Below, one piece after another: positions 17,036 to 59,407 of a stretch of DNA of 64,000 bases. The notes under the pieces are model-generated. The model made no database searches. It was not told the origin of the DNA and saw only the letters and a list, made by a program, of their open reading frames with translations. How positions within the stretch are numbered: position 1 is the first letter of the stretch; the number at the start of each line of letters is the position of its first letter. Position numbers and translations under genes: made by a program. The DNA lies in NCBI GenBank assembly GCA_964291265.2, contig OZ219747.1:3744001-3808000 (forward strand), in the 5' to 3' direction. Origin of the DNA: Alphaproteobacteria bacterium. GTDB taxonomy: Bacteria > Pseudomonadota > Alphaproteobacteria > SP197.

Positions 17036-18954
17036 GTCGCGGTAGGGATGCGCATTGCTGCGCACCCCCCGCACAGATCCGGACATGGACGTTAATCCAT
17101 CCGGCTCCTACCTCGGGTGCTTGACGGTAAACCGCTGGTCCGGCCATGGGTGGCGGATGGAGACGCGCGGCCAAAGAAGCTCGGTCATGCGCTCCAATCG
17201 CTTCCAGTCAAAGCAGTGGCGCTGGGAGCGGCGGCGGATCGCTCGCAGCCATAGGCGTTGCAGCCTTTGGCGGAACGTGCGCAGCCATCGGGTCGACCCC
17301 GGAACGGCGAAGTAGTTGGACCAGCCATTGACAACTCGCCCAAGCCACATGCCGACCTCCCATATGTCGTGATGCCGTCGATTGCGAAGCACCTCCTCGA
17401 TGCGCGCCAGGGTCCTTGCGACCCGTTTTGCGACCGGCTTGCGACCAAGCCTGAAGCGTCCTCTCCGGGTCTCCGTGCAGAAGTGCGTGAAGCCCAGGAA
17501 GTCGAACGTCTCCGGCCTGCCCGCCCCGCGAGATCGCCGGTTCGCCTTGGCAAACCGTCCAAACTCAACGAGACGGGTCTTGTCCGGGTGAAGGGTGAGA
17601 CCAAAGCGGTCCAGCCTCTCCCGAACGTCGCGAAGGTATGTCTCCGCATCCCGCTTATGCTGGAACCCGACCACAATATCGTCCGCGTAGCGGACAATGA
17701 TCGCTTTACCGTTCGGAACCTTCGGACGCCATGCCTTGTGAAACCACAGATCGAGCACGTAGTGCAGAAACACGTTCGCCAGGCAGGGGCTGACAATGGC
17801 GCCCTGAGGCGTGCCCGCACCGGTGTCGCTCCATGATCCGTCGGTCATGACGCCAGCGTTCAGCCACTTGCGGATCAGACGGATCACCCGCCTGTCGCCA
17901 ATGCGATGCTCCAGGAACTTGATCAACCAATCCCTCGGGATTGTGTCGAAGTACCCCTGAATGTCCGCGTCGACTATCCAGTTGACCTTGCGCCGCTCGA
18001 TCCCGAACGCCAGGGCGTCGAGAGCGTCATGCGCCCCTCGGCCCGGTCGGAACCCGTAGCTGAAGCCAAGGAACTCCACCTCATAAATCGGTGTCAGGAT
18101 CACATCCACAACCGCCTTCTGGACGATCTTGTCCTCCAGTGCGGCAATCCCGAGCGGTCGTGTCCCGCCGTCCGGCTTGGGTATCTCAACCCGCCGAACC
18201 GGCGGCGCCCGGTACGCTCCCCCACGATGCAGGCGCGAGTGCAGATCAAGCAAGCGCTCGTCCAGACCCTCGCCATACGCCGCCCACGTCACGCCGTCGA
18301 CACCTGCCGAGGCTTCCTTCTTCAAACCGAAGTAGGCCGCCCGGAGCGCGTCCGGCGTAATGTGATGGAAGAGTGCAGTGAGACGCTCCTTCGGGTTCCT
18401 CTCTGCAGCTTCCCGTATCCGGTCCGCCGCCTGTGGCACACTTGCCCGACACTGCGTTCGGTGCGTGCTTTGGCGTCCCGGATTCCCCTTGGTTGAGGCC
18501 CTTTCCTCCAGCGACTCCGCAGAAGCTGACGCTCCCTTGTTCGCCGCCTTCACCGGTCTTACGGCCCCATCCGACTTCTTCAAACCGTTCCTCATAGGCT
18601 TCGGCTTTCTCCTTTCCCTACACGGTCCCGCCACGACAGGCGGGATAGTTCGAAGACCTCCCAGGGTCCCAACAGAAGGCGTGCGGACGTGCATGGGTTC
18701 TCCGACACCGCGGGGCTCGCCGACATCTCACCAAATCGATGCCTGCGATGTTGCCTTCGACCGATGCGAAAGCCTCGGCACCCCGAACAACGGACTTTTC
18801 GGTGCTCATTAGCCCTGCCCATCCGTACCGCTACCGACGCTTCGCCTGCCCCCTCGCGGGAACCGACGCACGGCTCGCGGAGAAACGTGGTTTGGTTACT
18901 CCTTCGTTTCAGGGGACTTTCACCCCCTACCTTCCGCCAGTTCGCCTGGCACAC
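17036..18954 (-). mobile_element. RT-encoding group II intron (class E-like)
   Basis: 5' end GTGTGCC at 18954; 3' end CCCTACCGCGAC at 17036; DV GAGCCGGATGGATTAACGTCCATGTCCGGATC; EBS1/EBS2-like sites match exon GATGCG and GGACT. Confidence 0.92.
17108..18595 (-). CDS. ltrA: group II intron reverse transcriptase/maturase without endonuclease domain
   Basis: GVDG, IPKPDGGTRPLGI, FSYGFRPGR, DADIQGYFD, GTPQG, RYADD, FDFLGF, domain X; start ATG at 18595 chosen by family resemblance. Confidence 0.93.
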   Translation of the reverse strand: MRNGLKKSDGAVRPVKAANKGASASAESLEERASTKGNPGRQSTHRTQCRASVPQAADRIREAAERNPKERLTALFHHITPDALRAAYFGLKKEASAGVDGVTWAAYGEGLDERLLDLHSRLHRGGAYRAPPVRRVEIPKPDGGTRPLGIAALEDKIVQKAVVDVILTPIYEVEFLGFSYGFRPGRGAHDALDALAFGIERRKVNWIVDADIQGYFDTIPRDWLIKFLEHRIGDRRVIRLIRKWLNAGVMTDGSWSDTGAGTPQGAIVSPCLANVFLHYVLDLWFHKAWRPKVPNGKAIIVRYADDIVVGFQHKRDAETYLRDVRERLDRFGLTLHPDKTRLVEFGRFAKANRRSRGAGRPETFDFLGFTHFCTETRRGRFRLGRKPVAKRVARTLARIEEVLRNRRHHDIWEVGMWLGRVVNGWSNYFAVPGSTRWLRTFRQRLQRLWLRAIRRRSQRHCFDWKRLERMTELLWPRVSIRHPWPDQRFTVKHPR

Positions 18955-22232: not shown

Positions 22233-23590
<1,358 letters not shown>

Positions 23591-25210
23591 CAGGGCTTTT
23601 CTTTTGTCGTCCCGGCGCTCGGCGCACGCAGGCTGATCTTTGGGGTGGACATCCCGTTTTCGCTGTGGCAGTGTGCCGGCATGACGATGCTTGCGACCCC
23701 GGATTCCCCTATCGACCTTCGCGAGGTGACGGTGCGCCCGACCCGTGGCGCACGTGAGCACCGGCTCTGGGATCGTCTGGTCAAGGAGCATCACTACCTG
23801 CGGTTTCACGGCATCATCGGCAAGGGCCTGCGCCATGTCGCCCTGCACGGCGAGACCTGGGTGGCGCTGGTCGGCTGGCAGCCGGGCTCGTTCAAGCTTG
23901 CTGCACGCGACCGCTGGATCGGCTGGACTGCGGAGCAGCAGTTCCGCCGCCTGCATCTGATCGCGAACAATTCCCGGTTCGTCATTCTTGGCCCGAGAGG
24001 GGTGCCGAACCTGGCGTCCCGCGTGCTCGGCCTGAGCCTTCGGCGGCTGTCCGCCGACATTGAGGCTGCGCACGGATACCCAGTGTTCCTCGCGGAGACG
24101 TTCGTCGACATCAAGCGCTTCGCCGGAACCTGCTATCGCGCGGCGAACTGGCGCTCGCTGGGATTGACGCGCGGCTTCGGTCGCAAGCCCGGCGGCGCCG
24201 CACGCTTCCGTCACCACGGCCAGCCCAAGGAGATCTTCATGTACGAACTGACCGACGATGCCGCCGAGGCGCTGAGCCGGGACGCGATCCCGGAGAGCTG
24301 GAACGCGGAGCAGCACGACCAAGCCGGACCGATGGCCGCGTCCGGGCTGCGCAGTCTGTTCGCCTGCCTGGGCGAGGTGCCCGAGTGCCGCAAGCCCCGG
24401 GGCAAGCGCTATCCGCTGAGAACCATTCTCGCGATCGCCGTCGCAGCCCGGCTCGCCGGCTACCGCGGCGTGAGCGCATTCGCTCAGTTCGCCGCCCTGC
24501 TCACCCAGGAACAGCTGGCGGCGGTGGGTGCGTTCTACAGCCCGTCGAAGAAGCGCTACACGGCGCCCACGTCCACAACCTTCCACAGCATCCTCGCCAA
24601 CCTGCCGCCCGAGACCCTGGACCACGCCATCGGCCTGTGGACGGCCCAGCAGGCCGGTGCAGACACACCGCTCGCCATGGACGGCAAGGACATCCGCGGC
24701 GCCTCCAGGCAGACCAAAAACGGGCGGCGGATGATGGTCGCAGCGGTCGAGCACGGAACCGGCATGGTCCTCGGCCAGGTCGAGGTCGACGCGAAGAGCA
24801 ACGAGATCCCCGCCGTGCGGGACCTCGCCAGCAGCATCGACGTCACGGGCCGCATCGTCACCCTGGACGCGATGCACGCTCAGCACGAGACCGCGCAACG
24901 GCTTCTCGAGCGCCGCGCCGACTATGTCATCACGGCGATCAAGGATAACCAGGAGACCATGCTCGACGACCTCAAGGCCATCGACTTCAAGGGCGCGGCT
25001 TCGTTCGAGACACTCGACAAGGGGCACGGACGCATCGAGCGCCGCCGCTGTGCCGTGGTCGACATCTCCGGCGCCGAGTGGGACGGCTACGCCGCTCTCC
25101 ACGGTCACCACCAAGCCATCCGCATCGAGCGCGAACGCGAGATCTGCAAGACCAAAGAACGCAGTGTCGAGACCACCTGGTGCCTCACCTCGCTCGCTCC
25201 CGAACGCGCC

Positions 25211-26986
25211 GTCGGGTAGGCCACTGGCGCGCGTATCCGTAGGCAGAGGCTTTGTCCGTCACCGCTCTTTCGATTGCGGGCGGGGTCGCAGTTCTCCCAT
25301 AGACCACGTTTCCAGCAGTCGGGTAGGCCGCTGGCGCGCGCATCCGTAGGCAGAGGCTTTGTCCGGCACCGCTCTTTCGATTGCGGGCGGGGTCGCAGAA
25401 CTACCATAGACCACGTTTCCAGCAGCCTCCCTAAAATTCCGTACGTCCGGTTTTCCCGGGTACGGCTTCAAGCATCAGGCACCCACTTGGAGTTCGGTGC
25501 GGAGCCTTCCGCCGAACACGCCATGGTCAAGGCTGACCCGACCATACCCACGGCATCTCCGAGCGTTTGCTCCGTCCTTCGACCTTGCAGTCTGTCGGTC
25601 GGTGCCGGTCTCTGAGTACCGACTTGACCTGCCGCATAAGCCACCTGAGCCCTGAGGTCCTCGCTCAGGACGGGTTGTGTTGTCCCGCCCGTCAACGCTT
25701 ACTCGACCTCATCCGCCAGTCAGGAGGACTCCGCGTCCTTTCCCAGTCCTGGTTATAGACGCGGTCCTTGACATTCAAGGGTCACTTCATCCTGTCTGTC
25801 CTCCTCACCTTCCGGCCTTTCACTGCTGTACTGTCCCGGATTGCCGTCGTCTCTACCACGGGGAACCCGATGCGTGCTCCCCAGTTCTTCCGCATCGACT
25901 CTGGCCACCAAGCTGGGGGCAGGCCCTTGGCGTTCCCAACACCCCACAAGTCAGCTTCATGTGGGAAATTTCATTTTCGAGGCTTCGTACAATCGTTCGC
26001 TTTCGCTACGGCCCTCCGGTTCGCTCGCCGCCCTGGCTGACCAGACCAACTGGACACTGCGTTCCAGCCAGCCCACAGCGGCTTCTACATCCCAGCTCGC
26101 TGGCCCAGGGTCACCCCTGTACCAGTGGGATATGCTACGGCGCCAAACTGGGAATTGCGCCGGCGGGACTTTCACCCGCAAGTACAGCAGCTAGACTCGC
26201 TGCACGCCCCCCTAAAATTCCGTACGTCCGGTTTTCCCGGGTACGGCTTCAAGCATCAGGCACCCACTTGGAGTTCGGTGCGGAGCCTTCCGCCGGACAC
26301 GCCATGGTCAAGGCTGACCCAACCATACCCACGGCATCTCCGAGCGTTTGCTCCGTCCTTCGACCTTGCAGTCTGTCGGTCGGTGCCGGTCTCTGAGTAC
26401 CGACTTGACCTGCCGCATAGGCCACCTGAGCCCTGAGGTCCTCGCTCGGGACGGGTTGTGTTGTCCCGCCCGTCAACGCTTACTCGACCTCATCCGCCAG
26501 TCAGGAGGACTCCGCGTCCTTTCCCAATCCTGGTTATAGACGCGGTCCTTGACATTCAAGGGTCACTTCATCCTGTCTGTCCTCCTCACCTTCCGGCCTT
26601 TCACTGCTGTACTGTCCCGGATTGCCGCCGTCTGTACCCCGGGGAACCCGATGCGTGCTCATCAGTTCTTCCGCATCGACTCTGGCCATCGGGCCGGATC
26701 CACGCCCTTGGCATTCCCGACCACCCCACAAATCAGCTTCGTGTGGGAGCATCATTTCGTGGCTTCATCCAATCGTTCGCTTTCGCTACGGCCCTCCGGT
26801 TTGCTCGCCGCCCTGGCTGACCGAACCGGCTGGGCACTGTGTCCCAGCCAGCCCACAACGGCTTTCTACGTCCCAGCTCGCTGGTCCAAGGTCGCCCCTG
26901 AACCAGTGGGATATGCTACGGCGCCAAACTGACAATTGCGCCGGCGGGACTTTCACCCGTAAGTACAGCAGCTAGACTCGCTGCAC
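25211..26986 (-). ncRNA. ORF-less group II intron, outer variant copy 1 (888 nt: 25211-25317 plus 26206-26986)
   Basis: 5' GTGCAGCGAG at 26986; 3' CCTACCCGAC at 25211; DV GAAGCCGTACCCGGGAAAACCGGACGTACGGAATTT; no RT ORF. Confidence 0.88.
25318..26205 (-). ncRNA. ORF-less group II intron, inner variant copy 1 (888 nt)
   Basis: Complete 5' (GTGCAG) and 3' (CCCGAC) ends; DV at about 25433-25469; inserted at the DV-DVI junction of the outer intron. Confidence 0.9.
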
Positions 26987-28762
26987 GTCGGGTAGGCCAC
27001 TGGCGCGCGCATCCGTAGGCAGAGGCTTTGTCCGTCACCGCTCTTTCGATTGCGGGCGGGGTCGCAGTTCTCCCATAGACCACGTTTCCAGCAGTCGGGT
27101 AGGCCGCTGGCGCGCGCATCCGTAGGCAGAGGCTTTGTCCGGCACCGCTCTTTCGATTGCGGGCGGGGTCGCAGAACTACCATAGACCACGTTTCCAGCA
27201 GCCTCCCTAAAATTCCGTACGTCCGGTTTTCCCGGGTACGGCTTCAAGCATCAGGCACCCACTTGGAGTTCGGTGCGGAGCCTTCCGCCGAACACGCCAT
27301 GGTCAAGGCTGACCCGACCATACCCACGGCATCTCCGAGCGTTTGCTCCGTCCTTCGACCTTGCAGTCTGTCGGTCGGTGCCGGTCTCTGAGTACCGACT
27401 TGACCTGCCGCATAAGCCACCTGAGCCCTGAGGTCCTCGCTCAGGACGGGTTGTGTTGTCCCGCCCGTCAACGCTTACTCGACCTCATCCGCCAGTCAGG
27501 AGGACTCCGCGTCCTTTCCCAGTCCTGGTTATAGACGCGGTCCTTGACATTCAAGGGTCACTTCATCCTGTCTGTCCTCCTCACCTTCCGGCCTTTCACT
27601 GCTGTACTGTCCCGGATTGCCGTCGTCTCTACCACGGGGAACCCGATGCGTGCTCCCCAGTTCTTCCGCATCGACTCTGGCCACCAAGCTGGGGGCAGGC
27701 CCTTGGCGTTCCCAACACCCCACAAGTCAGCTTCATGTGGGAAATTTCATTTTCGAGGCTTCGTACAATCGTTCGCTTTCGCTACGGCCCTCCGGTTCGC
27801 TCGCCGCCCTGGCTGACCAGACCAACTGGACACTGCGTTCCAGCCAGCCCACAGCGGCTTCTACATCCCAGCTCGCTGGCCCAGGGTCACCCCTGTACCA
27901 GTGGGATATGCTACGGCGCCAAACTGGGAATTGCGCCGGCGGGACTTTCACCCGCAAGTACAGCAGCTAGACTCGCTGCACGCCCCCCTAAAATTCCGTA
28001 CGTCCGGTTTTCCCGGGTACGGCTTCAAGCATCAGGCACCCACTTGGAGTTCGGTGCGGAGCCTTCCGCCGGACACGCCATGGTCAAGGCTGACCCAACC
28101 ATACCCACGGCATCTCCGAGCGTTTGCTCCGTCCTTCGACCTTGCAGTCTGTCGGTCGGTGCCGGTCTCTGAGTACCGACTTGACCTGCCGCATAGGCCA
28201 CCTGAGCCCTGAGGTCCTCGCTCGGGACGGGTTGTGTTGTCCCGCCCGTCAACGCTTACTCGACCTCATCCGCCAGTCAGGAGGACTCCGCGTCCTTTCC
28301 CAATCCTGGTTATAGACGCGGTCCTTGACATTCAAGGGTCACTTCATCCTGTCTGTCCTCCTCACCTTCCGGCCTTTCACTGCTGTACTGTCCCGGATTG
28401 CCGCCGTCTGTACCCCGGGGAACCCGATGCGTGCTCATCAGTTCTTCCGCATCGACTCTGGCCATCGGGCCGGATCCACGCCCTTGGCATTCCCGACCAC
28501 CCCACAAATCAGCTTCGTGTGGGAGCATCATTTCGTGGCTTCATCCAATCGTTCGCTTTCGCTACGGCCCTCCGGTTTGCTCGCCGCCCTGGCTGACCGA
28601 ACCGGTTGGGCACTGCGTCCCAGCCAGCCCACAACGGCTTTCTACGCCCCAGCTCGCTGGTCCAAGGTCGCCCCTGAACCAGTGGGATATGCTACGGCGC
28701 CAAACTGACAATTGCGCCGGCGGGACTTTCACCCGCAAGTACAGCAGCTAGACTCGCTGCAC
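26987..28762 (-). ncRNA. ORF-less group II intron, outer variant copy 2 (26987-27093 plus 27982-28762)
   Basis: Repeat of 25211-26986 at a 1776-bp offset with about 5 substitutions; 5' end abuts the transposase exon at 28763. Confidence 0.88.
27094..27981 (-). ncRNA. ORF-less group II intron, inner variant copy 2 (888 nt)
   Basis: Apparently identical to 25318-26205 (identical overlapping translations). Confidence 0.9.
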
Positions 28763-29123
28763 GGACCCGAGATGCTTCTGGCCCTCGTGCGCGACCACTG
28801 GGTCATCGAAAATCGACTCCACTACGTACGCGACTTCACCTACGACGAGGACCGCTGCAGGGTCCATGTGCGCCATCTGCCACGCAACCTCTCCTGCCTG
28901 ACAAACGCCGCCATCGCCATCGTGCGCTGCGGCGGACATTTCGACTATATGCCCGAAGCCAACCGGCACTACGCCGCCCGCGCCCAGGACGCGCTCGACG
29001 CTATCCTCATCCCGCCCGGCGGATGAACCTTCGCTCCTGACCCCGCGCCACAAGCCGGGAACGCGCCGCCTGACGGCGCAACAGGACAGCTCTGTTCGCA
29101 CACTCGAAAAAACGTGCCTAGTA

Positions 29124-31552
29124 CTGCCCTTTAGTCATAAATCGTGCTGGACAAGATGATTCGGATGGTGCACCCTGCCCTGCATGGAAGCACACATTCC
29201 GATCAAACGTGTCCTTGAGGACCAGCTCGATCGCCTGCAGTCGATCGTCACCGAGAGCGGCGATAGTAGTCAAAACCGCCTGGCGCTGGAAGTGTGCCGG
29301 CACTTCGGCCTGCGGGACGCACGGGGACGCGAGCGGGTATCGAGCTGTGTCGTGGCCCTGAAGCAGCTGGCATCGCAGGGCAGGATCGAGGGCTTGCCGG
29401 AGCCCTCCGGTCAGCGGCGTCGGGCAACGCCCCGCCGGCTCGGCGAGGCGGTGGAGAAGCCGCGTGATGTGCCGGCGAGCGTGGCGGCGATCCAGGGTCT
29501 GCGGATCCTGCTGGTGCGCACGGATGCCGAACGGGCGCTCTGGAACGAACTGATGGCGCGGGAGCACTTTCTCGGCGCTCCCATTCTGGCCGGTCATCAG
29601 CTGCGCTATCTGGTGGATTCCGCTCACGGCTGTCTCGGCGGTTTCGGCTTTGCCGCAGCGGCGCTGAAGGTGGCGGATCGGGATGCCTGGATCGGCTGGG
29701 ATGCCGACCGGCGTCGTGCGGAGCGACACCGGGTGCTGTCGATGAGCCGGTTTCTGATCCGGGTGCCGGTTGCGAACCTTGCGTCGAAGACGCTGTCGAT
29801 GTGCCTGTCTCGCCTGGGCGCCGATGTTGCGCAGCGCTACGGGTTCCTGCCATGGCTGGTCGAGACCTATGTCGACCCGACGCGCGACGGTGCGAGCCTG
29901 CGGGCGGCGAACTGGCAGCTCGTGGGGTTCACCCGGGGCCGAGGCCGTCAGGACCGCGCGCGCGAGATGGCCGAGAGCGTCAAGGCCGTGTACATGTACG
30001 TTCTGGACCGGGACTGGCGGCACAAGCTGGGGGTGGCGGAGCCGATGCCGGCCCTGTCCCCGGGGGAGGGTCTGGACGCCTCGGCGTGGGCGCACCACGA
30101 GTTCGGGGGAGCGCCGATCGGCGACCGGCGTCTGAGTGCGCGCCTGGTGGAGATTGCACGAAGACAGGGAGAGAGTCCGATGTCGTCCTACAGCGGTCTG
30201 GCGCGCCCGGATCCTGCCGGTGTCCGGGCCTATTATCGGTTCCTGGATCAGCCGGAGACGTCGGCGGTGACCCCGGCGAACATCCTGGCGCCGCACCGTC
30301 AACGAACGGTGCAGCGGATGTGCGGCCAGCGGGTGGCGTTGTGCATTCAGGACGGGACGGACCTGAACTTCGCGACCCGTCCGGGCTGCGACGGTCTGGG
30401 CATCATCGGCACGAACCAGACGGCCTCGCAGACCCTGGGCCTGCACCTGCACGCCAGCTACGTTGTCAGCGGCGAAGGCCTGCCGCTGGGGGTGGCGCGT
30501 CTTGCCTTCGACGCTCCTCCCCGCCCCCGGGCAAAGACCGGTTCGGGCGAGGATGTCGAGATGTCCCGGCGCAAGTCGCAGCGCTGGCTCGACGGTCTCG
30601 ACGACATCGCGGACCTCGCGGCCCGGACGACCGGGGTGAAGGTCGTGTGCGTGATGGACCGGGAAGCGGACTTCTTCGAACTGTTCGACCGGTGCCGGCA
30701 GCATCGCCGTCTGTCGATGCTGGTGCGGGCTCGACATGACCGGGTTCTCAAGCGCGGGGCTGCGAAGCTGTTCACCCGACTACGTACGTCTGCCTGCCGC
30801 GGCACCATGCAGATCGACATACCCCGCCTGACGGCCCGGCCGAAGTCCTCGGGGCGCAAGAAGCAGCCCGGCCGCACTGCCCGGCGGAACGCGGTGCTGG
30901 AGTTGCGCTGGTTGTCGACCACGCTGCCGGCGACCGCTGGCTGCCCCGATGCCGCGCCCGTGGCCGTGACCGCGCTGCATCTCCTCGAGACGGCCCCGCC
31001 GGCCGGGGAAGCTCCGGTGGAATGGTTCCTGTTGACCGACCTTCCTGTGGACCACGCCGAAGCGGCCCAGGAGATCGTCGGCTGGTACGCGCTGCGCTGG
31101 CGGATCGAATGCTGGTTCCGGGTGCTGAAGTCCGGCTGCCGGGTGGAGCACCTGGCGACGCGCAAGGCCTGCCGCCTGGAACGGCAGATCACCATCCACG
31201 CCGTGATCGCCTGGCGTCTTGCCCTGATGACCCTGCTCGGGCGGGATGTGCCGACGATGAAGCCCGACTGCCTGTTCTCGGACCTGGAACTCCGCTTCCT
31301 CGGCGACTATGCCCGGCGATACCGGCTGGACCCGCCCGACACGCTGGGGGCGGCGGTGAAGCTGGTGGCGATCCTCGGCGGGTATCTGGACCGCAAGCAT
31401 GATCCGGCGCCGGGCAACCAGACGATGTGGCATGGCTATCCGCGACTGGCCACCGCTGCCCTGGCCTATGAATGCCTGCTCGAGGCCCTCGATCTGGATC
31501 CGACGTCGGAAGGACACGATCACGTCCTGCACGATTTGTGACTAATAGGTAG
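29124..31552 (+). mobile_element. IS4-family element encoding a DUF4338-fused transposase
   Basis: 24-bp IRs CTGCCCTTTAGTCATAAATCGTGC / CTACCTATTAGTCACAAATCGTGC; 8-bp TSD GCCTAGTA (29116-29123, 31553-31560). Confidence 0.9.
29184..31541 (+). CDS. DUF4338/DruA-like domain fused to IS4 transposase, 785 aa
   Basis: HFLG..GHQLRYL..RDAWIGW..SRFLIR..NLAS..ETYVD..RAANW, then IGDRRLSARL, IQDGTDL, MDREAD, YALRWRIECWFRVLKSG. Confidence 0.87.
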   Translation: MEAHIPIKRVLEDQLDRLQSIVTESGDSSQNRLALEVCRHFGLRDARGRERVSSCVVALKQLASQGRIEGLPEPSGQRRRATPRRLGEAVEKPRDVPASVAAIQGLRILLVRTDAERALWNELMAREHFLGAPILAGHQLRYLVDSAHGCLGGFGFAAAALKVADRDAWIGWDADRRRAERHRVLSMSRFLIRVPVANLASKTLSMCLSRLGADVAQRYGFLPWLVETYVDPTRDGASLRAANWQLVGFTRGRGRQDRAREMAESVKAVYMYVLDRDWRHKLGVAEPMPALSPGEGLDASAWAHHEFGGAPIGDRRLSARLVEIARRQGESPMSSYSGLARPDPAGVRAYYRFLDQPETSAVTPANILAPHRQRTVQRMCGQRVALCIQDGTDLNFATRPGCDGLGIIGTNQTASQTLGLHLHASYVVSGEGLPLGVARLAFDAPPRPRAKTGSGEDVEMSRRKSQRWLDGLDDIADLAARTTGVKVVCVMDREADFFELFDRCRQHRRLSMLVRARHDRVLKRGAAKLFTRLRTSACRGTMQIDIPRLTARPKSSGRKKQPGRTARRNAVLELRWLSTTLPATAGCPDAAPVAVTALHLLETAPPAGEAPVEWFLLTDLPVDHAEAAQEIVGWYALRWRIECWFRVLKSGCRVEHLATRKACRLERQITIHAVIAWRLALMTLLGRDVPTMKPDCLFSDLELRFLGDYARRYRLDPPDTLGAAVKLVAILGGYLDRKHDPAPGNQTMWHGYPRLATAALAYECLLEALDLDPTSEGHDHVLHDL

Positions 31553-55001: not shown

Positions 55002-55996
55002 TCAGTCGTGGCGCAGGTTCTTCAAACGCCTGTAGGGTCGACTCCCCTTCAATGCGTCGTTCTCTTCAATCATGTTCCACGGAGTCCAGCCATCCAAGGT
55101 CCGAGCCTTGTGACTTGCTCCCCGGTCGAGCAGCAGCCCGACCACTTTCGGATTGCTGCTCATTGCCGCCGCCACGTGAAGCGGAGTCAAGTCATGCTTG
55201 CTGCGCGCTTCCAGGTCCGCGCCCCGGTCGAGCAACAGCCCGACCACTTCCGGATTGTCGTGTGCCACCACCGCCCTGTGAAGCGGGGTACTGCCATCCA
55301 TGTCGCGCGCTTCCAGGTCCGCGCCCCGATCGAGCAACAGCCCGACCACGTCCGGGTTGCTGCTTACTTCGGCCGCCGCGTGAAGCGGGGTCAGGCCATG
55401 CTCGTCGCGCGCTTCCAGGTCCGCGCTCCGGTCGAGCAACACCCCGACCACTTCCGGATAGCTGCTCATTGCCGCCGCCATGTGCAGCGGAGTCGCGCCA
55501 CGCTCGGCGCGCGATTCCATGTCTGCGCCCCGGTCGAGCAATAGCCCGACCACGTCCGGGTCGCTGCTTGCTACCGCCGCTACGTGAAGCGGAGTCGCGC
55601 CACGCTCGTCACGCGCTTCCAGGTCTGCTCCCCGGTCGAGCAACAGCCCGACCACGTCCGGGTCGCTGCTTGCTGCCGCCGCCACGTGCAGCGGAGTCGC
55701 GCCAAACTCGCTGAGCGCTTCCAGGTCCGCGCCGTAATCGAGCAACATTCCGACCACTTCCGGATCGTCGTCTGCTGCCGCCATGTGAAGCGATGTCAGG
55801 CCATCCATGTCGCGCACCTCCAGATTTGCGCCCTAGTCGAGCAACAGCCCGACCACTTCCGGGTTGCTGCTTGCCGCCGCCGCCACGTGCAGCGGAGTCG
55901 CGCCAAGCTCCGCGCACACTTTCAAGTCAGCGCCTGCGTCGAGACAACGGGCTACATCAACCAACGTGGTCCGGTCAAATGGTCCGGTCGTGAAAT
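55002..55996 (-). pseudogene. ankyrin repeat protein (about 9 repeats), in-frame TAG at 55833-55835, 5' end truncated
   Basis: Repeated TPLHVAAA..SNP.VVGLLLDRGADLEARD units of about 102 bp; upstream VARCLDAGADL. Confidence 0.88.
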
Positions 55997-57189: not shown

Positions 57190-59407
57190 TCAGGGCCGGG
57201 TCAGGGCGTTGATGGCCTCGCGGCGGTCCAGTTGTAGGCGACGCCGGGTTTCGGCGAGGCTTTCGGTCTCGCGGCGGTTGGCGAAGATCACCGCGAGCGC
57301 GATGTTGTTGAGGCTGGCCCGGTTCGCCGGGCCGTTGTCGGTGCGGGTCAGGCAGGCGTCTTCGCCGAAGACGCAATCCCTTTGTCGATGGTTCAGATTT
57401 TCCACGGCCCAGTGGCGGCGGTTCAGTCGCAGCAACTCTTCCGGCGACGTGGCCCCCGTATCGAGAGAGGTGATGATGTAATCGGTTTCCGTGTAATCCT
57501 TCTCTTCTTGCTTCCCGGCATCGCCGGAGCCTTTCTTCCCGGCATCGCCGGGGCCTTCCTTCCCGGCATCGCCGGGGCCTTCCTTCCCGGCATCGCCGGA
57601 GCCTTTCTTCCCGGCATCGCCGGGGCCTTCCTTCCCGGCATCGCCGGGGCCTTCCTTCCCGGCATCGCCGGAGCCTTTCTTCCCGGCATCGCCGGAGCCT
57701 TCCTTCCCGGCATCGCCGGAGCCTTCCTTCCCGGCATCGCCGGAGCCTTCCTTCCCGGCATCGCCGGGGCCTTCCTTCCCGGCATCGCCGGAGCCTTCCT
57801 TCCCGGCATCGCCGGAGCCTTCCTTCCCGGCATCGCCGGGGCCTTCCTTCCCGGCATCGCCGGAGCCTTCCTTCCCGGCATCGCCGGAGCCTTCCTTCCC
57901 GGCATCGCCGGAGCCTTTCTTCCACGGCTCCCGATAGCGGGTGATGCGGGCGACCTGACGGACGCCCGGATAGTTGATCAGACCGTCCAACGGGACGAGG
58001 ACGCTGATCGAACGCTGCTCCAGTCGACCGTGCGCCTTGTCGAACGGCTCCGTGAAGTGGCCGGTAGCGTCTTTTTGCCAATTGATGCTGTCGAGGATGG
58101 CGAAGGTCTCCGGAGCGTTGCCCTTGACGACGAAGACGTAATCCGCGCGTTGTGTGATCAGCTTCGCGGTATGGCGTGTCGTGTGCAGCGCGTCGAGGGT
58201 GATCACCTTGCCGCCGATGTCGCTGCGCTCCAGGAGATCGTGCATGGCCGCCAGTTCGCCGCCTTCGTCGTTGAAGTTCAGGAGGGAAAAGGGCGCGCCG
58301 GTCTCATGGTCGACAAGGGCCACGGTCTCTCAGACGGCCATCGCCGTTGCGGTTGGCGCCGCGGATGCGCTTGCCGTCGGCGGCGAGTGCACGGGCGAGG
58401 TGAAGCCGAGGCCGGGACCAGCGGGTGTGTGTGAGCACATCCTCCAGAGCCTCGGGGTCGATCGACTGGATAACCCGGTGGATGGTGGACTTGGAGACGG
58501 GCTCGCGAAGCCCCGTCTTCGGGTTAAGCCACGCGCCGATGGCCTCCAACTCCTCCTGGGACAGGGACCGCGCGAACTGCGCGGCGGCGACACAGCCCTT
58601 CATGTTGGCGAACTCGGCGAGCACGTGCACGGTGAGCACCGATGCCGCGGTATGCTTCCTTCCCTGCGCCCGGCGGAAGTCGGGAATGGCCGCAAGCTCG
58701 GCGTAGAGCGAGCGCAGCACCTTGGGGTCCCGGGGCGCCAGTTCGGGGCATGAGGGCGGCGCCACGTCGGGGGGAAGCGGCAGTGGGCTCGACAGCAGCG
58801 CCCGGGCATCGCGCCTCAGTGCCGTAACGTAGATATCCTTGGGCTTGCCGTGGGGATCGGTATAGCGCCCGTTGGAGCGGGCAAACCCCTTGGTCTCACC
58901 CAGACACGTCCAGCCCGCAGCCTTCAACATCGTGCCGGCAAAGATCTCCGGATCGCAGAACGTCTCCGCCAGCAGCACCCCGTGGCCGTGCACCTGCAGC
59001 CAATCGTCACAGAGCCGGCGCGTCATGCACGCAAGGAAACAGGAAGCAAGGTTCGCAAACACCCCGGGCTTGGAGAGGATCAAGAACCGCGTGTTGTTGG
59101 CTACCATCGAGAGCCGCTGGAACTGCTGCTCCGGCTTCCAGCCGGTCCACTGGTCGCGGGGAGCGCACTTGAAGGCGCCGTTCTGCCACGCCGCCAGCCC
59201 CAGCCAATGGCCCCTGAAGGTCGCAAGGTAGCGCAGACCGCGACCCGCCAGGCGACGGAAGCCGAGATAGTGGTGCTTGTTCATCAGCGCGTCCCACAGC
59301 GGACGCTCCTCCGGCCTCGCCAGGCGAACATCGACCTCAGACAGGGAAAAACCCTCAGGTGCTTCCTGATGGATCGGGACAGCTTCCATGAGCTTGCGAA
59401 TCGACAT
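57190..59407 (-). pseudogene. DUF4338-ISAs1 fusion transposase, frameshift near 58330, with an in-frame repeat expansion
   Basis: HHYLGF..RDQWTGW..NNTRFLI..NLAS..ETFCD; AADGKRIRG; ITLDALH, VKGN, AHGRLE, HWAVENLNH. Confidence 0.85.
57511..57922. repeat. 24-bp tandem repeat, about 17 copies (CTTCCCGGCATCGCCGG[A/G]GCCTT[C/T])
   Basis: Translates as (GDAGKEG[S/P])17 in the transposase frame. Confidence 0.95.

Follow-up and report, generated by a model that had tools for sequence, protein, structure and literature searches.

In group IIB introns, reverse splicing is guided by the pairing of EBS1, EBS2 and EBS3 to the DNA target, and in Euglena an inner intron is known within domain V of another intron. 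Among the closest described systems are the TeI3/TeI4 introns of Thermosynechococcus elongatus, in which one scaffold carries six EBS1/2/3 families, identical ORF-less F3 copies lie inside divergent sisters and were interpreted as separate insertions, F4 occupies a conserved IS site, and mobilization takes place in trans (Mohr, Ghanem and Lambowitz 2010, PMC2882425). The nested introns of Methanosarcina acetivorans arose by repeated site-specific homing into group II introns (Dai and Zimmerly 2003, as summarized in PMC4424553 and PMC2882425). For EcKTE56.groEL, another IIB intron, it has been shown experimentally that a second copy enters the exon/intron junction with EBS3 pairing to the resident G1, and the resulting head-to-tail junction is regarded as diagnostic of tandem integration (Gomes et al. 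2025, PMC12584367). An intron within a near-identical or related intron has also been described for the self-invading plant mitochondrial cox1i1149g2 and for a Trichodesmium twintron (PMC7049729, PMC4649490). Reviews and papers on twintrons place the inner introns in RT ORFs, DI or DIV.

Here, we describe a locus that combines several of these features at a different landing site. On comparison of all copies, we consider it highly probable that they form a single gene-less IIB-type family in which EBS1, EBS2 and EBS3 vary and match each copy's own flanks, and that the variant with guides GCCCCC, GAAAUU and G sits 7 nt inside DVI of all six occupied sisters, having likely arrived by separate retrohomings with a trans-borrowed RT.

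The window is the whole 64-kb stretch of DNA that was analysed. A profile search returned four near-identical RF02003 matches on the minus strand of the region, and the exact intron ends resolve these into two 1776-nt twintrons in tandem at 25211-28762, antisense in an ISAs1 transposase. Twintron A (28762-26987) and twintron B (26986-25211) are arranged head to tail on the minus strand, and each is composed of 781 nt of outer 5' part, 888 nt of inner intron and 107 nt of outer tail. The sequence-only reading had given the range 25318-26986, which is too short because it leaves out the 107-nt outer tail at 25211-25317. The features, with their supporting evidence, are arranged as follows.

23567-25210, plus strand: 5' part of the ISAs1-family transposase, the host element in which the introns lie antisense (NF033564 positions 1-261; empty copies 97-99% identical).
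25211-25317, minus strand: twintron B outer 3' tail, predicted branch A at 25217 (exact ends; fold).
25318-26205, minus strand: twintron B inner, ORF-less, 888 nt, DV at 25434-25469, predicted branch A at 25324 (RF02003 at 26001-26181).
25425-25430, minus strand: the inner's own copy of its target, GGAGGC, with one C-A mismatch to the inner EBS1 (sequence).
25853, minus strand: twintron B inner EBS3 G, forming G-U with the outer tail +1 U (pairing analysis).
25915-25920, minus strand: twintron B inner EBS1 GCCCCC (covariation, consensus fold).
25967-25972, minus strand: twintron B inner EBS2 GAAAUU (covariation, consensus fold).
26206-26986, minus strand: twintron B outer 5' part, DV at 26215-26250 (RF02003 at 26781-26962; fold).
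26206-26211, minus strand: inner IBS1 GGGGGC, in the 5' strand of the outer DVI basal stem (sequence; fold).
26214-26219, minus strand: inner IBS2 AATTTT, in the outer DV 3' end plus linker (sequence; fold).
26634, minus strand: twintron B outer EBS3 C, which pairs with the exon +1 G and the resident intron G1 (14/17 guide types pair at this column).
26696-26701, minus strand: twintron B outer EBS1 GGAUCC, in the terminal loop of Id3 (consensus fold; whole-intron fold).
26748-26753, minus strand: twintron B outer EBS2 GAUGCU, in the unpaired linker 5' of stem Id2 (consensus fold, covariation).
26986-26987, minus strand: head-to-tail junction CCGAC/GTGCAG between the twintrons (sequence).
26987-27093, minus strand: twintron A outer 3' tail, the remainder of DVI, predicted branch A at 26993 (exact ends; fold).
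27094-27981, minus strand: twintron A inner, ORF-less, 888 nt (100% identical to five other inners).
27743-27748, 27691-27696 and 27629, minus strand: twintron A inner EBS2, EBS1 and EBS3.
27982-28762, minus strand: twintron A outer 5' part, DI-DV plus 7 nt of DVI (RF02003 at 28557-28738; fold).
28524-28529, 28472-28477 and 28410, minus strand: twintron A outer EBS2, EBS1 and EBS3.
28763-28768, minus strand: outer IBS1 GGGTCC (6/6 pairing with EBS1 GGAUCC).
28771-28776, minus strand: outer IBS2 AGCATC (6/6 pairing with EBS2 GAUGCU).
28763-29026, plus strand: 3' part of the ISAs1 transposase, the 5' exon of the minus-strand array (NF033564 positions 265-313).

Excision of 25211-28762 leaves one stop-free plus-strand ORF whose two halves align with NF033564, the ISAs1 transposase model, at 1-261 and 265-313, which places the introns antisense in the IS; the transposase mRNA can thus not be repaired by splicing. 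Nesting is precise and on the same strand, since removal of the inner restores an outer of 888 nt, the length of the inner itself, with the junction found in the uninvaded outer at C2 3658598. Neither the inner nor the outer intron contains an ORF. Between the two twintrons there are 5 differences, every one of them in the outer. Around the array, the ISAs1 ORF carries a long N-terminal extension ahead of the NF033564 domain (23567-24300), which resembles the N-terminal part of the adjacent 785-aa ORF (29184-31541). A gene at 22235-23620, presumably a type I restriction-modification M subunit from its DPCCGSG and NPPF motifs, has an in-frame TAG at 23250-23252 and is truncated next to ISAs1. 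Tandem repeats occur in the window at 55015-55943 (period 102 nt, 6 copies) and 57411-58019 (period 24 nt, about 18 registers).

All 13 full copies in this genome score 61-68 bits against RF02003, for which the gathering threshold is 49, as expected of a domain I-IV architecture, and a six-domain fold is predicted. DVI has a bulged A at -7 and the 3' end is CCGAC, in keeping with the IIB pattern of an A 7-8 nt from an AY end. The 5' end is GUGCAG or GUACAG across the family, not GUGYG, and the intron boundaries were fixed by exact empty sites instead. A DV-like hairpin with AGC and an AC bulge is kept in 20 other genomes, and its basal stem needs a 2-nt bulge. Overall we read the family as gene-less group IIB-type introns, with splicing predicted. 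RF00029 gave no match to the family's DV even at E<=5. As a published intron census starts from the RF00029 model, undercounting of such introns is likely.

The sequence-only reading had proposed one guide pair for the outer intron and another for the inner, and direct reading of the sequence finds all four hexamers where it put them. The outer EBS1 pairs 6/6 with GGGUCC (one G-U) and EBS2 6/6 with AGCAUC, while the inner EBS1 pairs 6/6 with GGGGGC and EBS2 6/6 with AAUUUU (one G-U); both IBS2 sites lie at -14 to -9, as it had held, and full pairing of a fixed hexamer by chance has a probability of 0.0007-0.004 in each case. Its description of two near-identical introns diverging mainly in domain I is also borne out: 56/891 columns differ, 44 of which fall within nt 1-390, and comparison of the inner with the spliced outer places 21 of the 56 in nt 201-310. 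The exon it cited, AGCATC-TC-GGGTCC (28763-28776), was assigned to the wrong copy. It flanks the upstream twintron A (26987-28762), whereas next to the copy that begins at 26986 lies the 3' end of the other twintron, which pairs 1/6 with EBS1. The inner's target had been described as the DV-DVI junction of the outer; the DV/DVI region holds for 6/6 inners, but the cut itself falls 7 nt inside the DVI basal stem. Two guides and two variants had been counted, yet EBS3 has changed too, and T2 (EBS1 CGUGAC) makes a third variant.

In a consensus fold built from 18 representatives, EBS1 is the terminal loop of Id3, EBS2 is a linker before Id2 with 5/6 columns unpaired, and a third variable base, EBS3, lies in the coordination loop, each pairing with its IBS1, IBS2 or IBS3. 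Folding of domain Id, the check proposed with the hexamers, thus puts EBS1 in a loop and EBS2 in an unpaired linker, and not in stems. The EBS columns are both unpaired and variable (entropy 1.4-1.7 vs 0.37 elsewhere). Single-sequence folds of short Id fragments gave z of about 0, with the inner EBS1 mispaired with the fragment end.

Covariation between guides and exons, the other proposed check, is present across homologues, as 17 guide types covary with their own exons. Counting one exon site per guide type, EBS1 pairs at 100/102 positions (shuffle mean 55, max 74), EBS2 at 95/102 (mean 72, max 84) and EBS3 in 14/17 types (mean 6.8, max 13), and 0/5000 family-wide shuffles reached the observed value for EBS1, EBS2 or EBS3. 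The EBS2 score is the best over the offsets searched, and the EBS2 null is high because of this best-of search. The count omits the copy B outer, whose flank is the tandem junction, the duplicate L055, and copies for which no 5' end lay within 800 nt. EBS3 is unpaired in 3/17 types, the L054 inner among them, and T3 has one mismatch in IBS1 and one in IBS2. These 17 natural EBS1/2/3 sets on one ORF-less scaffold of 850-890 nt constitute a test set for targeting rules, among them any role of EBS2 in the homing of E/F-like introns. EBS2 was found dispensable for self-splicing, with its role in homing left open (PMC3753933).

Six twintrons of the same build are present in the genome (C2 486719, 1366526, 3117383 and 4091336, and two in the window). 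Their six inners are identical, with 0 differences in 15/15 pairs, while all six outers differ from one another, by 3-8 nt pairwise and by 36-40 against T2. The inner is held by 6/7 full outers. The seventh (L001, C2:3658598-3661441) lacks it, but a transposase-like insertion of 1956 nt lies 20 nt deeper in its DVI, so that none of the full outers in this genome has an uninterrupted DVI. This element, which we take to be IS1634, is flanked by a short direct repeat. Three EBS guide sets occur in this genome, the third being that of T2 (CGUGAC/GACGCU/G), which matches its own exon. At 5/6 insertion sites the intron is on the G-rich strand, a bias expected under replication-fork homing.

The outer guide had been said to target the transposase. 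The GGAUCC guide is in fact found at 5 sites, only 2 of which are ISAs1 copies, always antisense there, and 8 matching ISAs1 sites are empty; transposase-specific targeting is ruled out by the three non-transposase sites, namely two without an empty copy elsewhere and one multi-copy ORF. No copy of the inner was found in this genome outside its sisters, although 47 RF02005 matches are present, which excludes the inner as a general intron parasite. Contigs from sequencing runs X1 and X2 show the empty-site joint, which the empty ISAs1 copies would lead one to expect. The intron 3'-to-5' junction (26961-27015) is crossed by one X1 contig with 26+29 letters, below the 31-letter bridging bar and hence uncounted; the match ends at a base private to copy B and could be from another tandem allele or an intron circle.

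Beyond this genome, the exact DV pattern recurs at 53 loci spread over 20 further genomes, most of them Alphaproteobacteria MAGs, with Binatia and two Bacillota besides, and at 10 further metagenome loci; plasmids, viral contigs and 400 phylum-wide genomes gave no match. Both ends were located for 47 outside loci, and 27 of these are inserted in a second group II intron, on its sense strand; counted by distinct insertion site, 15/32 are inside group II introns. With so many members inside other introns, and no RT encoded by any member found, parasitism is a family habit. The earlier proposal that retargeting created an intron-parasitizing variant is therefore upheld in its aim at sisters; the creation of parasitism by that step is not, nor is an outer-to-inner direction.

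A second DVI twintron was found in a Paracoccaceae genome (L054). Common ancestry of the two DVI-targeting inners is rejected, since each inner groups with its own genome's outers with 100/100 support, a tree uniting the two is excluded by the AU test (p=0.002), and DI-DV contains 121 genome-pattern vs 0 role-pattern sites. From these comparisons, DVI targeting most likely arose independently twice in the family, suggesting that the conserved DV/DVI stretch is a recurring niche. Three further outside loci are of note. L063 has a family 3' end with an inner-type DVI inside domain I of a sister, a second sister-targeting site, with its 5' end off the contig. L091 is a Bacillota ORF-less intron with the same atypical DV, apparently nested just ahead of another intron's RT ORF. 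L186 (G468:C20:277500-286500) consists of six exact head-to-tail copies, with a period of 895 nt, of a different short RF02003-type intron, and shorter repeats with the same 895-nt period occur in G468:C42 and C8; the L186 array is natural multi-round tandem homing.

The order of events may be pictured as follows. The first step would have been the spread of outers to several sites, including two antisense in ISAs1, through ordinary retrohoming guided by EBS1/2/3. At an occupied site the exon IBS1 and IBS2 would remain available, and a second outer could have homed there because its EBS3 C pairs with the first G of the resident intron, giving the head-to-tail pair. Each outer would then have been invaded separately by a variant with guides matching the conserved end of DV and stem of DVI, and the same retargeting would have occurred independently in another sub-lineage (L054). 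The identity of the inners within divergent outers argues for separate and recent invasions, the reasoning that Mohr et al. applied to T. elongatus. An invaded outer might splice once the inner has been excised, or by way of a composite DVI formed by the inner 5' strand and the outer tail. The composite DVI folds at -105.5 kcal/mol and the inner's own DVI at -103.5 kcal/mol, within 2 kcal/mol of each other, and given this modelled fold the invaded outer need not be dead.

Such movement requires an RT, and the window contains one candidate apart from the twintrons.

17108-18920, minus strand: a different group II intron, of RF02005 type, with a 528-aa RT/maturase, candidate trans helper (RF02005 169.7 bits; TIGR04416 356 bits).

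The intact RTs found in this genome all belong to this RF02005-type intron, present in about 16 copies, and RF02003 matches over the cut-off comprise only the ORF-less copies and one fragment. RF02005 introns are present in 19/19 carrier genomes and, within the genus, in 8/8 carriers vs 3/14 non-carriers, a co-occurrence confounded by the intron richness of carriers, the non-independence of kin and a possible overlap of the two genome sets. In a BLAST comparison with the RF02005 intron, a 13-nt DI word was all that matched, and no DIV-like segment was shared. We regard this abundant RF02005-type RT as the most likely helper, with about even confidence. If it is the helper, this would be an exception to the rule that ORF-less introns of bacteria rely on closely related IEPs, and such introns would be undercounted, as RF00029 is blind to them. 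About 14 identical short RF02005-type derivatives with only an N-terminal RT remnant (e.g. C2:377171-377395) occur beside the full RT copies. One RF02005-type copy (C2:1339225-1340563) is interrupted by another group II intron with a truncated RT (1340138-1340563), the only other RT type seen in the genome.

The alternative that survives best is that a cognate RT, recently lost or outside the assembly, mobilizes the family and the RF02005 intron is merely a frequent target. This would follow the usual rule for bacterial ORF-less introns as given in PMC4424553, and it fits the RF02003-type RT introns in 10/19 carrier genomes, whose DVI is similar to that of the family. A cognate RT may have disappeared only recently, as the genome does contain a truncated RT of a different type. 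A query with the L145-type (RF02003-type) RT, however, gave no match at 1e-100 in 9/19 carriers, this genome included, and among outside copies with a located 5' end none has an RT ORF. Marker genes put the completeness of the genome at 100%, and the lack of any difference among the six inners implies that they moved recently. We see a cognate RT as a real possibility, though one we do not favor. Going beyond the RF02005-type helper itself, it is conceivable but speculative that the family is a long-lived, wholly ORF-less lineage, unseen by the standard DV/DVI model, and a non-autonomous parasite of another intron class: it would use an RF02005-type RT in trans and often insert into RF02005 introns, its three guides would have been reprogrammed repeatedly and independently onto the branch-point helix of its sisters, and a composite DVI would keep the host splicing.

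A further question is why the inners themselves are free of insertions, 0/6 being invaded vs 6/7 outers. An A at -4 of the inner's own DVI site (GGAGGC) makes a C-A mismatch with EBS1 GCCCCC, and the A variant occurs in 2 of 63 outside DV matches, both nested in sisters, as expected if it were selected to block self-insertion. However, the L054 inner has the same A and yet an EBS1, CCCUCC, that is fully complementary to its own GGAGGG, the A also converts a G-U to an A-U in the DVI stem, and the inners, being younger, have had less time to be invaded. Selected self-immunity is thus doubtful.

It might also be supposed that the inner invaded once and the whole 1776-nt twintron then moved as a unit, excised by a chimeric ribozyme of outer DI guides, inner DV and composite DVI. 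The composite DVI being the minimum-energy fold would allow this, and unit movement would account for the 6/7 occupancy and for a tandem of complete twintrons. Copying as a unit nonetheless predicts that inners diverge as much as outers, and the inners show no divergence in any pair while the five GGAUCC twintron outers differ by 4-8, and by 36-40 against T2, which makes the proposal improbable. Equally improbable is that the head-to-tail pair is an assembly duplication or a product of DNA recombination: although no contig of four public sequencing runs spans the array, its copies differ at 5 positions, all outer, the junction is exact at both intron ends, the EBS3 C-G1 pairing permits re-homing as shown for EcKTE56.groEL (PMC12584367), and another ORF-less intron forms exact head-to-tail arrays in G468.

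In summary, separate retrohoming of a retargeted inner into the DVI of its sisters is the reading we prefer, and its parts can be set against the known systems. The RF02003-type RT-encoding introns L145 and L140, presumably class E/F-like, share with the family the RF02003 match and a similar DVI motif, GGAAACGTGG...GCGCGCCAG; the window family differs in having no ORF, a 5' GURCAG instead of GUGYG, an apparent 2-nt basal-stem bulge in DV and no detection by RF00029. Its pattern follows that of T. elongatus in nearly every detail, and it shares with that system EBS-set families on one scaffold (3 sets here, 17 family-wide) and identical inners in divergent outers. The landing site described there is the start of the RT ORF in DIV, whereas here it is the DVI basal stem, and the helper described there is a closely related IEP (PMC2882425), whereas in the present family neither partner has an ORF and the search for an intact cognate RT gave none; a closely related RT-encoding intron, as in T. 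elongatus, was not found in the same genome. The M. acetivorans case is archaeal, has RT ORFs as targets (by its title) and forms nested arrays, in contrast to the head-to-tail twintrons described here. The EcKTE56.groEL junction, CCGAC/GTGC, is of the same kind as that of the window array, but the published events are laboratory events of an RT-encoding CL1 intron with a U-G wobble (PMC12584367), whereas the tandem in the window is natural, uses a C-G pair and has had each copy subsequently invaded. The inner of cox1i1149g2 lies in DIV and is dead, and that of Trichodesmium lies in DI; neither is in DVI, unlike here.

Our literature search, in which coverage of subscription papers was thin, found no bacterial intron homing into the DVI of a sister. 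The family is a clean example of natural guide reprogramming on one ribozyme scaffold, for which T. elongatus is an earlier case. The literature already contains ORF-less sisters that have been retargeted and nest in introns or IS elements (T. elongatus), as well as tandem re-homing (Gomes 2025); it is the DVI landing site, together with the likely use of an enzyme borrowed from another class of intron, that appears to be undescribed.
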